Made by a program: the position numbers and the translations under genes
The notes under the pieces: model-generated
What the model was told of the DNA's origin: nothing
Databases searched by the model: none
The model's input: only the letters and a program-made list of their open reading frames with translations
Part shown: positions 2,600 to 53,615 of the stretch, one piece after another
Layout of the letters: each line of letters opens with the position of its first letter
How positions within the stretch are numbered: position 1 is the stretch's first letter
From: a virus
Direction: 5' to 3' (one strand)
Virus record (IMG/VR): IMGVR_UViG_3300045988_126023
Span: 1-53,615 of that record
Length of the DNA stretch: 53,615 nt

Positions 2600-3835
2600 A
2601 TGTCAATGAATTTCGGAAAACTGAACTTTAGTACAAGTTTTAAACCTACCGCTGCATTTCCGTTAAATGCTAACTGCTATTTTGAAAGCTTGGAGCAGGC
2701 TATAGCAGCAGCAGCAACAGCGGAGGAAGTCGGAAGCTCAAATACCGTTTATCATTACGGTCAAGAAATTGCGGTTGTCGAGAACAACAAGGCCACAATA
2801 TACGTTATTCAGCCCGATAAAACACTGAAAGAGGTCGGGGCAACTCCCGCAGGAGACGGAACAAGTGTTGAGGTTGTTGACGGCAAAATCAGAATTATCG
2901 GCTTTGCAGGAGCAGAAAGCGGCTCACAGCCCCGCAAAAAGGCCGACGGAACAATAGAATGGGTAAAGCCTGATACTTCTACTGTAGAGGGCTTGCAGAC
3001 GCTTGTTTCTGGCCTTGAAAGTGACGTGGAAACACTTCAAACAAGTAAGGCAAATGCGGCTGATGTTTATACAAAGAACGAAGTCGATACAAAGCTGTCG
3101 GCAGTGTACAGATACAGCGGTTCTGTCAATTCGTATGCAGACCTTCCTACTGATTTGACAAACACAGATTCGGACATCGGCAAGACCTACAATGTAAAAA
3201 CCGCCAACAAAGCACACGGCATTAAAGCTGGTGATAACGTTGCTTGGACGGGCACAGAGTGGGACGTTCTTGCTGGTGAGGTTGATTTGTCCGCTTATAG
3301 CACAACGGAGCAGATTACAGCCGAACTCGATAAAAAGGTTGATAAGGTTGACGGGTCAAGACTTATCACAGCGGAAGAAGCCGCAAAAATCGCAACAGCA
3401 GAAGCGAATGTTATTGAAAGCGTTGATACGGCGCAGTTTGCTCTTGACGGCGACAAAAAGCTCACATTGCTTGATGTTGCTATGTCAAAGGTAACTGGCC
3501 TTACTGACGCTCTGGCCGACAAGGTTGATAAGGTCGAGGGTTCACGGCTCATAACAGAGGCGGAAGCCACAAAGCTGGGAGCAATCGAAAGCGGCGCACA
3601 GGCCAACATCCTTGAGGTTGTCAAACTCAACGGTGAAGCCCTTGCAATAAGCGAAAAAGGGGTTGATATTCCCGTTGCTGGGGAAAGCCTCGGCGTGGTT
3701 AAATCGTCCGCAGCCGAAAACAAAGTTTCGGTAGGTACAGACGGCGAAATGTCTGTAAACAATGTAAATGTAAACAAACTTGTTCAGACCGACGGAGAAA
3801 CACTGATTCTCAACGGCGGCACATCAGAAAATTAA
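2600..3835 (+). CDS. coiled-coil fibre protein
   Basis: 411 aa. Internal repeats DKVDGSRLITAEEAAKI / DKVEGSRLITEAEATKL. C-terminal NKLVQTDGETLILNGGTSEN motif shared with 3851..4954. Confidence 0.55.
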   Translation: MSMNFGKLNFSTSFKPTAAFPLNANCYFESLEQAIAAAATAEEVGSSNTVYHYGQEIAVVENNKATIYVIQPDKTLKEVGATPAGDGTSVEVVDGKIRIIGFAGAESGSQPRKKADGTIEWVKPDTSTVEGLQTLVSGLESDVETLQTSKANAADVYTKNEVDTKLSAVYRYSGSVNSYADLPTDLTNTDSDIGKTYNVKTANKAHGIKAGDNVAWTGTEWDVLAGEVDLSAYSTTEQITAELDKKVDKVDGSRLITAEEAAKIATAEANVIESVDTAQFALDGDKKLTLLDVAMSKVTGLTDALADKVDKVEGSRLITEAEATKLGAIESGAQANILEVVKLNGEALAISEKGVDIPVAGESLGVVKSSAAENKVSVGTDGEMSVNNVNVNKLVQTDGETLILNGGTSEN

Positions 3836-46915: not shown

Positions 46916-48493
46916 TTGCCTGAATCAAAAACGAGCCTTAATGAAATGCTTTATGATGTTAAGCGGATTGCAAATCATAGAGAGCAGTTAAGCGAAAAGA
47001 AAATAAAGTCAATATATAGCTCCCTTATGAAAGATTTAAGGGCTTTTTTGGGTGAGAGCTATGAAAAGTACAGCGACAGTGACGGGCGTTTTTATTTATC
47101 ATACTTAGACGCACAAAACAAAAGAGCAAAATTCTTACAAGAAATAGCCGAAAGGATAGACACTATTTCGCCCAAACTCAAAAAGGAAATGCTTGACCTT
47201 GTAGATGATACATACAAAAGATGTTATGAGGGTATGTCTGAGGCCGTCAGAACCGCCGACACAAGGCGAAAGCTGGTAAATGCAACAAAGGACTTGAGTG
47301 TTCAGCCAGACGAGCTAAAACAGGCTGTAAACAACAATATAGACAAGCTGACATTGCCCGCCGTAATGGAAAAGCACCGTGCAGAGGTTATATATCAAGT
47401 GCAGCAGGCTTTGACAATAGGCCTGATAAACGGCGATAGGTACGAGCAAATGGCAAAGCGCATTTCTGAGCGGGTCGGTGTAAGTGAAACAAAAGCCCGC
47501 AATATAGCCCGCACAGAGAGCCACAGAAATGTTGAGAGCGGGTTTATGGATTGTGCTGAGCATATACAGAAAGGTATTGACGGCAGCGATTATATTTATG
47601 CTGCAACTTGGCACAACATGGGCGACGAAAGAGTTAGGCCACAGCAAAGGCGCAAGACAAAAAAAGGCTGGAAAACTACACTAAGCAGAAATGGCGCAAA
47701 CCATATTATAATGGAGGGGCAGACCGTTAAAGTCGGTGACGAGTTTAATTTAGGCGGTGGCGTTAAAGCAAAAGCCCCGTCAAAAAGCGGTGTAGCGGCT
47801 CATGACTGTAATTGCCGTTGCTTTCTTGAATACAATCTAATGACATTAGCGGAATTTGAAAAAGCAAGCGGTAAGACCGTTAAAACCGCAAGTATTAACA
47901 GCGCTATCAAACGACAAATGAATGATAACGGCATAGCAAACCTTGAGCTACAACGAACTACGGACACAGTAGCATTTGATAAGGCAATAAGAGAAATGAA
48001 AAAGCAAGGCGGGGCGGCGGCTTGTGTTGATACTCACCCGCTCGAAGAACTAAAAGACTTTAAACTGTTTCTTTCTGAAAATCAAATGGCAGGTGTAGCG
48101 GTTAAGCCTGACGGGGATATAACAGCAGTATTCAAAAGCGCAGATTACAAGGTAAAAGGTGGCGTAAATGACCTCATTATAACAGCAAGGGCAAACGGCG
48201 GCGAAAAAATGGATTGTTACGGCAGCTTTCTTGTGAACTCATATGAAAAATGCGGGTATAAACCTGTTGCCCGAATACCGTTTAATGCTGATTATGTGGA
48301 CGACGCTTATTTGCTTGCTACAAAGCCAGATGTTTACATAATGATGAAAAACACGGACGACTTAGAAACCGTTATAATGAAAAACGCAAAAAAATTATAT
48401 AAAACCTCTACACAAGAAATGCTCGATAACTTACCGACATTTACAGATTATGACGCAGGCCTGAAATATCGTAATACGCTTTTAGCAAAGTAG
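46916..48493 (+). CDS. MuF / SPP1 gp7-like minor head protein with a GNAT-like C-terminal module
   Basis: MuF core ARNIARTESHRNVESGF...ERVRPQQ...AAHDCNCRCFLEY (aa ~150-305). aa ~345-480, AGVAVKPDGDITAVFKS..VKGGVNDLIITARANGGEKMDCYGSFLVNSYEKCGYKPVARIPF, looks like a GNAT motif A. Confidence 0.75.
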   Translation: MPESKTSLNEMLYDVKRIANHREQLSEKKIKSIYSSLMKDLRAFLGESYEKYSDSDGRFYLSYLDAQNKRAKFLQEIAERIDTISPKLKKEMLDLVDDTYKRCYEGMSEAVRTADTRRKLVNATKDLSVQPDELKQAVNNNIDKLTLPAVMEKHRAEVIYQVQQALTIGLINGDRYEQMAKRISERVGVSETKARNIARTESHRNVESGFMDCAEHIQKGIDGSDYIYAATWHNMGDERVRPQQRRKTKKGWKTTLSRNGANHIIMEGQTVKVGDEFNLGGGVKAKAPSKSGVAAHDCNCRCFLEYNLMTLAEFEKASGKTVKTASINSAIKRQMNDNGIANLELQRTTDTVAFDKAIREMKKQGGAAACVDTHPLEELKDFKLFLSENQMAGVAVKPDGDITAVFKSADYKVKGGVNDLIITARANGGEKMDCYGSFLVNSYEKCGYKPVARIPFNADYVDDAYLLATKPDVYIMMKNTDDLETVIMKNAKKLYKTSTQEMLDNLPTFTDYDAGLKYRNTLLAK

Positions 48494-48593
48494 TTATAAG
48501 CGCAAAGTTGAAAAAGAGGTAATTGACGTTCAGAAAAAGGCGTCCAAAGAGGGAATAAAAGTCGCTGTTACAAAAGAAGATGTCACAGAGAAT

Positions 48594-49007
48594 ATGCGTG
48601 ATGTTGTTCGTTATACCTGCTTGAGTGAAAAAGGCGACCTTGTAAAAGATTATAATAAAATTATGGGTACTCTTGAAAATGACGGTTATAAGGTTGTAAG
48701 GGTAAAGAACACATTTAAGCCCGACGCACCATATAAGGGAATAAACACGATTGTTCAAGACCCAGACGGCTATAACTTTGAACTGCAATTCCATACCCCG
48801 CAGAGCTTTGAATTAAAGAACGGTATATTACATGAACTCTATGAAAAAGAGCGGCTTGTTACAACGCCACAGGCTGAAAAGGTAATCTTACAAAAGCGAA
48901 TGAAAGAAATCTCAGACAGCATTGTTTTCCCTGATAATGTTGATAAGATTAAGGCCTTTAATGATTTACCTGACTTATTAGAGAAATTAGCCAAAAAAAC
49001 AAAGTAA
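48594..49007 (+). CDS. RelA/SpoT-homologue (toxSAS-like) nucleotide pyrophosphokinase domain, N-terminally truncated or frame-broken
   Basis: DVVRYT, PYKGINTIV, ELQFHT and HELYEKER align with the SAS motifs D-x-x-G-x-R, GYRSxH, EIQIRT and H..YK. The frame is open back to 48486 (YKRKVEKEVIDVQKKASKEG) with no start codon or SD. Confidence 0.6.
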   Translation: MRDVVRYTCLSEKGDLVKDYNKIMGTLENDGYKVVRVKNTFKPDAPYKGINTIVQDPDGYNFELQFHTPQSFELKNGILHELYEKERLVTTPQAEKVILQKRMKEISDSIVFPDNVDKIKAFNDLPDLLEKLAKKTK

Positions 49008-49009
49008 AG

Positions 49010-49055
49010 TTTGTGCATTATGCGAATAGACTTTATACTGCAAAAGTGTTATAAT
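49010..49055 (+). promoter_or_regulatory. promoter cassette Pe7
   Basis: TTTGTgcatTATGCgaATAGAC-18-(agtgt)TATAAT, starting 3 nt after the stop of the RSH-like ORF. Confidence 0.6.
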
Positions 49056-49104
49056 AAGCTTGCAAGGTGAGAGAGACAACACCGAGCAGAAAGAGGTATT
49101 TATT

Positions 49105-49287
49105 ATGAAAGACTATGTTGTAAGAATTTTAAACTATACCGACGATATTATAGCTGGCGCAATAGTAAAGGCACGAAATAAAAAAGAGGCGATAGAAGCT
49201 TATAAGCGAGAACACCCTATAGAATCAAAATATATGTCAATCTATGATAGATTTGCAGTTTATGAATACGGCACAATTTTCAAATAA
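49105..49287 (+). CDS. hypothetical protein (60 aa), first gene of the Pe7 cassette
   Basis: The ATG follows AGAAAGAGG. MKDYVVRILNYTDDIIAGAIVKARNKKEAIEAYKREHP... Confidence 0.5.
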   Translation: MKDYVVRILNYTDDIIAGAIVKARNKKEAIEAYKREHPIESKYMSIYDRFAVYEYGTIFK

Positions 49288-49311
49288 TGTGATAAAGAAA
49301 GGGGTAAGTAT

Positions 49312-49512
49312 ATGCGATACTATGAAACTACAGCCGACCTATTAAGAGTTGACGACAGCGGCACTATTGAGCAGTACGACATTGATTTGAAGATGTGGCG
49401 ACCTGCTGACAGCGGTATGAGTGGCATTTATAGCGGTGATATTGAATGTACTGAAATAAGCAAGGCCGAAGCTGATAAAGCGCTCAAAAGGTGGGCTGCT
49501 AATGCTGATTAG
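49312..49512 (+). CDS. hypothetical protein (66 aa), translationally coupled to the hydrolase
   Basis: AAAGGGG SD. The stop overlaps the start of 49502..49918. Confidence 0.5.
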   Translation: MRYYETTADLLRVDDSGTIEQYDIDLKMWRPADSGMSGIYSGDIECTEISKAEADKALKRWAANAD

Positions 49513-49918
49513 GGCGTTTATAATTGCATATAAAGCGCACAGAGGGCAAAAAGACAAAGCGGGCAAGGCATATATATTGCACCCCGTTTTTGTTGCTATG
49601 CACACAAAGGGCATTAAGCGAAAAACCGTTGCATTGTTGCATGATGTTGTGGAAGATACCGAAATCACATTTGAAGATTTAAAACGAAAAGGATTTGATG
49701 ATGAAATAGTGAGAGCGGTACAGGCTATAACCAAAATCAAAGGTGAAAATTATCAAGACTATTTGCAGCGGGTAAAACAAAACACCATTGCAAAAGATGT
49801 AAAATTGGCTGATTTGCAGCACAATAGCGACTTGCACAGAATTAAAAAAGTAACAGAAAGTGACATTATAAGAAATCAGAAATATCAAGCTGCTATTCTT
49901 TACCTTAGTACAGCATAA
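49502..49918 (+). CDS. small alarmone hydrolase (HD-domain (p)ppGpp/(p)ppApp hydrolase, Mesh1/SAH-like)
   Basis: AHRGQKDKAGKAYILHPVFVA, ALLHDVVEDT and KLADLQHN give the H...H-x-x-x-x-x-x-HD...D layout of the RelA/SpoT hydrolase domain. 138 aa, single domain. Confidence 0.8.
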   Translation: MLIRAFIIAYKAHRGQKDKAGKAYILHPVFVAMHTKGIKRKTVALLHDVVEDTEITFEDLKRKGFDDEIVRAVQAITKIKGENYQDYLQRVKQNTIAKDVKLADLQHNSDLHRIKKVTESDIIRNQKYQAAILYLSTA

Positions 49919-50014
49919 TAAACAAAATAGTTTTGAAATCTTGCTCATAATATTGTCTATTTTGTCAATTTACTAAAAAAGTAATAAATGTTATAATAGT
50001 ATAGAGGTGAAATT

Positions 50015-50233
50015 ATGAGTTCTGATAACCTTTTCCGTAAATATCAAGGCTTGACGGCTGACGAAATAATTTCACAGCTCGAAAACCAGTACAAAGATGA
50101 TGAAGAAGCATTAGAAAGCATTGAAAGAGCAAAGACCGATATTGCATATATAAGAGCGCAAAAGGATTATGACGGCCAAACGCCCAAACAAAAAGCTTTA
50201 GAATGTGCGGGCACTCTGGACTACTGGAATTAA
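50015..50233 (+). CDS. hypothetical acidic protein
   Basis: 72 aa. AGAGGTGA SD, preceded by an extended -10 (tgtTATAAT 49989-49997). Confidence 0.5.
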   Translation: MSSDNLFRKYQGLTADEIISQLENQYKDDEEALESIERAKTDIAYIRAQKDYDGQTPKQKALECAGTLDYWN

Positions 50234-53074: not shown

Positions 53075-53578
53075 ATGGGCGTTAAATGGACGACAAAGGT
53101 AAACAAGCTGCCTGAAATTGCGAAAACCCTGAACACAATAGACGGTAAGGGTGTTAAGGTTGGCGCTCTGACAGGTAATCATGCGTGGTTAGCTGGAATC
53201 CATGAATATGGCTGTAACATTCGAGTAACGCCCAAAATGAGGGCTTTTTTACACGCTAACGGCTTACACCTCTCCCCGAATACAACGGTTATTAAGATAC
53301 CCGAACGCAGCTTTATTAGAACGGGACATGATAAAAACATAGACCGAATAATAATGCAGACAGAAAGGGCAATAGGGCAGGTTGTAGCTGGGAATATGAG
53401 TGTTGATGATATGCTCGACTTATACGGCCAGCAAATGGCAACGGCAATCAAGCTATATATGCGTAATCTTAAAACGCCGCCAAATCACCCATACACGGTT
53501 GAACAAAAAGGCTCGTCTAATCCGTTGATTGATACGGGAAATTTGCTTGAAAGCATAACTTGGAAAAAGGAGGGGTAA
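53075..53578 (+). CDS. HK97 gp10-like neck protein
   Basis: 167 aa. The C-terminal IDTGNLLESITWK matches the DTGxLxxS motif of the gp10 family. Confidence 0.5.
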   Translation: MGVKWTTKVNKLPEIAKTLNTIDGKGVKVGALTGNHAWLAGIHEYGCNIRVTPKMRAFLHANGLHLSPNTTVIKIPERSFIRTGHDKNIDRIIMQTERAIGQVVAGNMSVDDMLDLYGQQMATAIKLYMRNLKTPPNHPYTVEQKGSSNPLIDTGNLLESITWKKEG

Positions 53579-53615
53579 TATGCAATATTACAATTTCACA
53601 CGGCTTATAAAAAAA

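Follow-up and report, generated by a model that had tools for sequence, protein, structure and literature searches.

A probable deletion-disabled MuF–alarmone synthetase toxin gene with retained immunity genes in a metagenomic phage

MuF head proteins fused to C-terminal Apk2 toxins are known from prophages of S. pneumoniae, B. caccae, M. haemolytica and P. multocida, in which the toxin gene is accompanied by genes for IapK/Tis1-like and Aph1 immunity proteins (PMC10083569, PMC12226406). A P. multocida member of the family was characterised as a (p)ppApp-synthetase toxin (PMC12226406). A related enzyme, SaEAS of Streptomyces albidoflavus (PDB 8VX3), represents a family of exported synthetases in which the C-terminal domain of XopAD effectors was also placed; the family has SPP1/MuF-fused members, and both SPP1/MuF and XopAD are listed among its N-terminal export domains (PMC12691689). 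MuF, GNAT and RelA/SpoT domains were described as modules of head-packaged multi-effector polyvalent proteins (Iyer et al. 2017, PMC5512222). Whether MuF-fused toxins are injected to help infection or are used in bacterial competition is unsettled (PMC10083569). Here we analyse a locus of this type on the virus record IMGVR_UViG_3300045988_126023, the whole 53,615 nucleotides (nt) of which are called the window below. It contains a MuF head-protein gene followed by a broken reading frame for an alarmone synthetase and by several small genes. We consider the locus to be a deletion-disabled, recently decayed Apk2-family MuF polymorphic toxin whose immunity genes were retained, and assign this reading a probability of about 0.87.

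A first-pass annotation of the window, made from the letters alone, had described a 525-amino-acid (aa) MuF open reading frame (ORF) and, out of frame with it, a RelA/SpoT-like ORF. Its coordinates and frame arithmetic are correct. The downstream ATG-initiated ORF (48594-49007, 137 aa) belongs to a frame which is open back to 48486, directly after a TAG at 48483-48485. This frame is offset from that of MuF by +1 and shares 5 nt with it (48486-48490), and taking out one A at 48487-48489 gives a single frame of 697 codons. Loss of one A from this run of three had been pointed out as enough to fuse the frames; the actual lesion is a 149-nt deletion, that is, about 49 codons.

The deletion became evident from the closest relatives of the locus. 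An exact-sequence cluster look-up returned ten full-length variants of the protein on at least 16 contigs, of either 746 aa (P0135, P0137-P0141) or 747 aa (P0127-P0130). In four loci from as many samples (L104-L107), MuF, the GNAT-like domain and the synthetase form a single protein of 746 aa, and the DNA aligns collinearly with the window (98.3-99.1% identity). Structurally, these loci differ from it in one point only, a 149-nt segment (translated as ...LLAKQKKGILLDAPEKHYTLSVTKEPAITETLQKAVSKTNGKLSGLDFRLKTESSYKRK...) that is missing from the window. The deletion ends lie in two AAA triplets. Residues Q526-E574 of the 746-aa fusion have been lost, and with them the linker, the helix that begins the toxin domain (including E546 and G566, both invariant) and the two basic residues of the R-x-K motif, R570 and K572. 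Since 149 = 3×49+2, the reading frame downstream was shifted by +1, and a TAG two codons past the junction now terminates MuF. The earlier proposal that a MuF carrier, a GNAT-fold domain and an RSH synthetase were once parts of one virion protein is thus borne out by the intact 746/747-aa sister versions, and the comparison with related phages that it called for shows the toxin domain fused in frame there, both in the ten variants and in most of the IMG/VR loci described below. We also considered that such a fusion had never existed, because a search with an artificially fused C-terminal half found no protein spanning both halves. That search was flooded by toxin-less MuF–GNAT-like proteins, and the cluster look-up overturned the idea.

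According to the reading preferred here, the ancestral gene, still intact in the sisters, would have encoded a 746-aa virion protein with a MuF carrier, a GNAT-fold middle and a C-terminal Apk2/EAS synthetase. By analogy with characterised relatives, this synthetase would pyrophosphorylate ATP/ADP to (p)ppApp and stop growth, while the IapK/Tis1-like inhibitor and the Aph1 hydrolase encoded behind it would protect the producing cell. The deletion between the AAA triplets took away the linker, the first helix and the Arg-x-Lys part of the ATP-phosphate-binding motif, and left 173 toxin codons in the +1 frame devoid of a start codon and a ribosome-binding site (RBS). The remaining MuF–GNAT-like protein has a length typical of toxin-less relatives, so its head function should be unaffected.

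The frame 48486-49007 corresponds to the C-terminal three quarters of an alarmone-synthetase domain, and the 137-aa ORF alone to residues 610-746 of the intact protein. In a phmmer search against PDB this ORF matched SaEAS (8VX3) with E=6e-8; the match covers chain residues 84-203, so the ORF represents roughly the C-terminal 60% of the domain. The match of the remnant to FaRel2 in the same kind of search was marginal (E=0.83). With a profile built from eight toxin domains, the match to 8VX3 extended across the complete domain (E=5.7e-31), and Tas1 was found as well (E=1.5e-3). The full domain closest to the remnant is that of P0121 (67% identity); its AlphaFold2 model matches 8VX3 with a template modelling (TM) score of 0.72-0.75; RelP, RelQ, Rel, Tas1 and CapRel were among its further Foldseek matches. 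In NCBIfam, the downstream ORF matched the C-terminus of XopAD effectors (E=1.5e-22), which agrees with the listing of XopAD in the SaEAS family (PMC12691689). Homology searches also produced in-frame MuF–synthetase proteins of 473-556 aa, including "minor capsid proteins" of Pasteurella multocida. Pattern scans of metagenomes and genomes gave relatives no closer than 57% identity.

The Pfam RelA_SpoT family (PF04607), on the other hand, hit neither the window remnant nor the intact P0135, and with the P. multocida homologue it scored only E=0.018, under the cut-off. More generally, scanning the window ORFs with Pfam, NCBIfam and PHROG detected no RelA_SpoT or GNAT family, the informative matches being the XopAD C-terminus and head-protein PHROGs. 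The RelA/SpoT domain named in the first-pass annotation is therefore upheld by homology to 8VX3 and by fold, though not by Pfam, and the same applies to the GNAT-like domain: both assignments hold through structure and closer homologues. Judged by these, the synthetase domain belongs to the Apk2/EAS branch of the RSH superfamily. The likeness to toxSAS enzymes suggested earlier has to be replaced by a place in this polymorphic-toxin branch, which comes with Aph1- and IapK-type immunity genes.

The R-x-K-x-x-x-S-x-x-x-K motif of Rel and small alarmone synthetase (SAS) enzymes binds ATP phosphates. In eight aligned toxin domains K572, S576, R579, K580, E546 and G566 are invariant, and R570 is present in seven. 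The remnant keeps the catalytic Asp (MRDVVRYT) and Glu (FELQFHT) as well as S576 and K580, while R570 and K572 are deleted; the form starting at the ATG is without the entire motif. The 36 codons in front of this ATG had been aligned with the start of SAS catalytic domains, and their S-x-x-x-K half does align, but the R-x-K half is missing from the window. As stated previously, there is no in-frame ATG, GTG or TTG among these 36 codons and no Shine-Dalgarno sequence before the ATG at 48594, while neighbouring genes have GAGG/GGAGG-type sites.

A truncated product of 137 or 173 aa could still be imagined to be expressed and to function as a small alarmone synthetase, a toxSAS or a decoy binding the immunity protein. 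The 173 codons are open and retain the catalytic Asp and Glu motifs, and an identical 137-aa ORF was called in several assemblies. However, the product would be without the first helix and R-x-K, or without the whole motif if translated from the ATG, and no Shine-Dalgarno sequence would direct its translation. Besides, the sequence is that of the last part of the intact fusion and shows no trace of having evolved on its own, and, except for contig-end fragments, our searches found no stand-alone homologue starting at this place. We regard a functional fragment as highly improbable. The remnant is most likely untranslated and inactive, and the 137-aa "hypothetical protein" present in several databases would then be a toxin stub, which is a lesson for annotation.

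Surveying IMG/VR, we collected 80 Apk2-like loci. Of 78 complete loci, 72 (92%) have the toxin domain fused in frame to a long N-terminal part. In six (L037, L039, L043, L060, L082 and L088, about 8%) the toxin-bearing ORF is shortened within MuF to 227-359 aa, so disrupted MuF–toxin genes are not rare. None of the 80 loci has a GNAT-like domain, hence the MuF–GNAT-like–Apk2 order seems to be specific to the lineage of the window phage.

This bears on a programmed +1 frameshift at 48486-48490, by which some translations would yield a fusion of about 697 aa and each capsid would receive a few toxin-bearing MuF copies. The 5-nt overlap, across which a 1-nt shift joins the frames, fits such recoding, as does another locus (L004) where MuF and an intact toxin are one base apart in an A-run. 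Yet the offset is fully accounted for by the 149 nt that the window has lost in comparison with four sister loci (98-99% identical), and in-frame fusions are the rule among complete related loci. A fused product would be short of 49 catalytic-domain residues, the invariant K572, E546 and G566 among them, so even a perfect +1 shift would give a truncated and most likely inactive domain. By inspection, GCA-AAG-TAG contains no recognisable +1 shift site. Stop-codon recoding was considered as well, for an in-frame TGA in the related locus L003, and was ruled out: TGA ends ordinary genes (four of the 48 long plus-strand ORFs of the window), and intact alleles have AGA at this position. With TGA being an ordinary stop codon and 72 of 78 loci in frame, recoding is not supported, and we find a programmed frameshift barely credible. 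Of the three origins offered by the first-pass annotation, recoding can be dropped, while indel and decay stand.

The locus L004 (140-230; Logan SRR31464291, a 999-bp contig) is the closest non-allelic relative, its toxin being 67% identical. Its MuF is without a GNAT-like domain, and a one-base offset in the A-run (GAAAAC) separates MuF from the frame of the complete toxin domain. A mutation, an error due to low coverage or slippage at this site may account for the offset.

The 149 nt could also have been lost in assembly or sequencing, the phage itself having an intact 746-aa gene. The window is a metagenome scaffold (ENA ERZ28568063, scaffold_722; source sample SAMEA2784510, possibly run ERR636411), intact alleles prevail among the relatives, and the contigs with the deletion may not be independent of one another. 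Repeat collapse, however, needs a repeat of k-mer length, and the deletion ends share 3 nt (AAA) only. The same allele is present on four contigs produced by two pipelines (ENA and Logan), which, together with the short shared flanks, makes assembler collapse unlikely. The contig also closes on itself with a 55-nt terminal overlap, pointing to a clean assembly. Taken together, an artefact seems to us improbable. The overlap consists of the first 55 nt (1-55) recurring as the last 55 (53561-53615); relative to the ENA record, the window is rotated. Both observations fit a complete phage genome of about 53.56 kb that closes into a circle.

A different lesion at the same motif is found in L003, a short contig (Logan ERR14842858) with 98% identity to the window. 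Here one frame leads from MuF into the toxin domain (...RNTLLAKQKKGILLDAPEKHYTLSVTKEPAITETLQKAVSKTNGKLSGLDF*LKTESSYKRKVEKEV...), with one TGA in the otherwise continuous 746-codon frame. The TGA (2417-2419 of the contig) sits on the Arg codon of R-x-K and is a second, independent knock-out at this motif. The toxin has therefore been knocked out at least twice in the lineage, by a 149-nt deletion and by a nonsense codon.

Several observations weigh against a disabled toxin with its immunity retained. The deletion is known from assemblies, four contigs in all, and at least two of these may share one sample, as L002 is identical to L001 over 7,751 nt. The remnant has no further disabling mutations, and its protein is 100% identical to the L003 copy; this suggests that the deletion event was recent, but some residual role of the toxin fragment is conceivable. 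Arg570 is not universal, being replaced by Asn in P0125. Finally, the assignment of the IapK-type gene relies on synteny and on 26-35% identity in very short proteins.

The toxin appears to be mobile together with its immunity genes. The first 430 residues of the 747-aa variant P0127 are identical to the toxin-less P0131, and the last 320 are identical to P0135. Such a mosaic indicates that recombination within the GNAT-like domain has brought the toxin-immunity cassette from one MuF backbone to another, which is the behaviour expected of polymorphic toxins; on this sequence pattern, the cassette probably travels with the last ~100 residues of the domain as a recombination handle. The MuF backbones sharing the cassette are about 75% identical, and the breakpoint lies near residue 430, equivalent to about 48200 in the window.

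The MuF gene occupies the position expected in a head module, immediately 3' of an SPP1_portal gene, and its MuF domain, named in the first-pass annotation, was recognised by Pfam (Table 1). Related phages have toxin-less MuF–GNAT-like proteins of 520-550 aa, and the length of the ORF falls in this range. The C-terminal module had been described as GNAT-like, about 140 aa long. Foldseek supports the fold, but the domain is larger (about 195 aa, residues ~330-525) and matches no GNAT family of Pfam. Its AlphaFold2 model has a predicted local distance difference test (pLDDT) score of 95.8, and the top Foldseek matches in PDB are nearly all GNAT acyltransferases, 2I00, 5JPH, 5GCN and 1GHE among them (probability up to 1.0, best E=2e-4, TM 0.35-0.5). 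Sequence searches of the domain in Pfam, NCBIfam and PDB, including a domain profile against PDB, gave nothing. The acetyl-CoA loop, located between strand 4 and helix 3, has the sequence K-x-K-G-G-V (K-x-x-G-A-V in the family), a partial match to Q/R-x-x-G-x-G/A. Two motifs of the domain, D-C-Y-G and K-x-x-G, are invariant. A GNAT fold of residues ~330-525 is thus supported by the predicted structure.

In BFVD, the model matches domains within uncharacterised phage proteins of 1000-1400 aa (TM 0.84-0.95, 33-52% identity), one of which is annotated as 'Large polyvalent protein associated domain'. Homology searches found more than 100 clusters of MuF proteins (520-550 aa) that end in the GNAT-like domain and have no toxin, and the domain is also C-terminal in the non-MuF proteins P0110 and P0111. 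In the toxin-less relative L112, the MuF–GNAT-like gene is directly followed by backbone genes, with no immunity cassette in between. No homology to TacT/AtaT toxins was detected in Pfam, PDB sequence, profile and Foldseek searches of the domain. The earlier comparison with TacT/AtaT-type GNAT toxins is accordingly abandoned, since the domain is a standard C-terminus of toxin-less MuF proteins and occurs in polyvalent proteins. It appears to be a widespread virion-associated domain.

By comparison with L112, the cassette spans approximately 48415-50000, and the 72-aa ORF at 50015 seems to belong to the phage backbone. One member of the cassette is the putative (p)ppApp hydrolase gene, whose product matched 7SMG, '(p)ppApp hydrolase', over the full length with E=3.7e-32 and is 52% identical to the hydrolase of the P. 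multocida locus. Six Aph1 residues (D24, R96, D116, R119, K133 and Y134) were reported to confer (p)ppApp specificity (PMC10083569), and the alignment shows counterparts of all six in the window hydrolase. Canonical Apk2 loci show this gene order too, a small ORF followed by an HD-domain gene.

The small ORF in question codes for 66 aa and is 26-35% identical to ORFs of 69-72 aa found in the same position in P. multocida and metagenomic Apk2 loci, which, like it, overlap the start of the hydrolase gene. It received no support from Pfam, PHROG or PDB. Its position and similarity suggest that it may encode a protein-type immunity factor. A profile of the 66-aa family run against PDB found kelch-repeat proteins only, through a short "YD..W" motif and no significant stretch, and the match was treated as spurious. 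The 60-aa ORF preceding it occurs in every locus of the lineage. It matched no family when scanned with Pfam, NCBIfam and PHROG, and its product may be an accessory factor or a third immunity factor. In L003, an 89-aa ORF (3047-3316) is located between the toxin and the 60-aa ORF. It has a weak match to AbbA-antirepressor-like proteins (E=2e-4, below the cut-off), is bordered by the repeated RBS-like AGAAAGAGGTAT and is not present in the window, where the equivalent position is 49089-49114. We considered this ORF as an IapK candidate and ruled it out, as it is missing from the intact loci L104-L107. A megablast search of 46916-50000 against GenBank phages gave no match.

Table 1. Features of the MuF–toxin locus in the window (positions in nt of the window).
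Feature	Coordinates	Strand	Basis and remarks
MuF/SPP1 gp7-like head-morphogenesis gene, 525 aa	46916..48493	+	TTG start; PF04233; TAG at 48491-48493
MuF domain proper, aa 161-304	47396..47827	+	Pfam PF04233 (Phage_Mu_F), E=4e-12
Predicted GNAT-fold C-terminal domain, aa ~329-525, ~195 aa	47900..48490	+	AlphaFold2 model and Foldseek
Deletion junction, AAA microhomology	48487..48489	+	Alignment with intact sister loci
Apk2/EAS-type putative (p)ppApp-synthetase toxin remnant, 173 open codons	48486..49007	+	Residues 575-746 of the intact protein
Promoter-like site TAGACT-17-TATAAT, TG upstream	49027..49055	+	Consensus match only; between the toxin stop and the immunity genes
60-aa ORF, conserved	49105..49287	+	In all intact loci; strong ribosome-binding site
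66-aa ORF, candidate IapK/Tis1-type protein-inhibitor gene	49312..49512	+	Synteny; overlaps the hydrolase start
Aph1-type (p)ppApp hydrolase of 138 aa with an HD domain, apparently intact	49502..49918	+	7SMG, Pfam HD_4

The relatives of the window locus form a natural allelic series at 98-99% identity: armed (746 aa), interrupted by a nonsense codon (TGA at the motif Arg) and carrying the deletion (the window). A toxin-less form, in which the immunity cassette is also missing, is available in a more distant relative (about 75-79% identical). The series allows direct comparison of infectivity and of the protection of lysogens. The GNAT-like domain, common in MuF proteins of gut phages and in giant polyvalent proteins, is a candidate virion enzyme.

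We speculate, with considerable doubt, that the 746/747-aa relatives may be two-effector head proteins in which a GNAT acyltransferase and a (p)ppApp synthetase, the former proposed from structural models, would be injected together with the DNA. The window phage would then be a disarmed variant with its antidotes kept under selection. If so, lysogens of the window phage would be protected against the armed sisters without the cost of the toxin, and two knock-outs at the same motif would be the outcome of repeated selection against the toxin instead of neutral decay.

Several described systems can be compared with the locus. The toxSAS enzymes (FaRel2, CapRel) have the same RSH synthetase fold, and a SAH-type hydrolase can act as their antidote. 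They are stand-alone toxins of two-gene toxin-antitoxin operons, whereas the domain described here is the C-terminus of a structural-protein fusion. The logic of an alarmone synthetase paired with a protein inhibitor is shared with the type VI secretion system (T6SS) effector Tas1/Apk1 and its immunity protein Tis1 (PDB 6OX6). Tas1/Apk1 differs in its PAAR/T6SS delivery, in being far more distant in sequence and in having no hydrolase-type immunity gene in its locus. SaEAS is the closest solved structure to the toxin domain (PMC12691689). It is exported by the Sec pathway and makes both (p)ppApp and (p)ppGpp, while the toxin domain studied here is carried by a phage head protein and linked to a hydrolase with a (p)ppApp-specific signature.

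The GNAT families described by Iyer et al. occur in gammaproteobacterial prophages, beside an ADP-ribosyltransferase domain, and in conjugative elements (PMC5512222). Neither in this paper nor in the other literature searched did we find a description of the MuF–GNAT–RelA/SpoT order. The first-pass annotation had regarded the combination as new; this can be maintained for the GNAT-like insertion, which appears to be undescribed, but not for the fusion of MuF to RelA/SpoT, which was described before (PMC5512222, PMC10083569).

The Apk2 MuF toxins resemble the locus most closely. They have the same N-terminal MuF, the same site in the head module after the portal gene, a homologous synthetase domain at the C-terminus (38-43% identity in the case of P. 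multocida) and, downstream, a small ORF followed by an Aph1-type HD hydrolase gene. There are three differences: the window itself does not encode a complete in-frame synthetase, which is present in L104-L107 and P0135; the intact sisters hold a GNAT-fold domain of about 195 aa between MuF and the toxin; and an additional conserved 60-aa ORF precedes the IapK-like gene. The novelty of the locus with respect to the known Apk2 systems is limited to the GNAT-fold middle domain of its intact relatives and to the series of armed and disarmed alleles.

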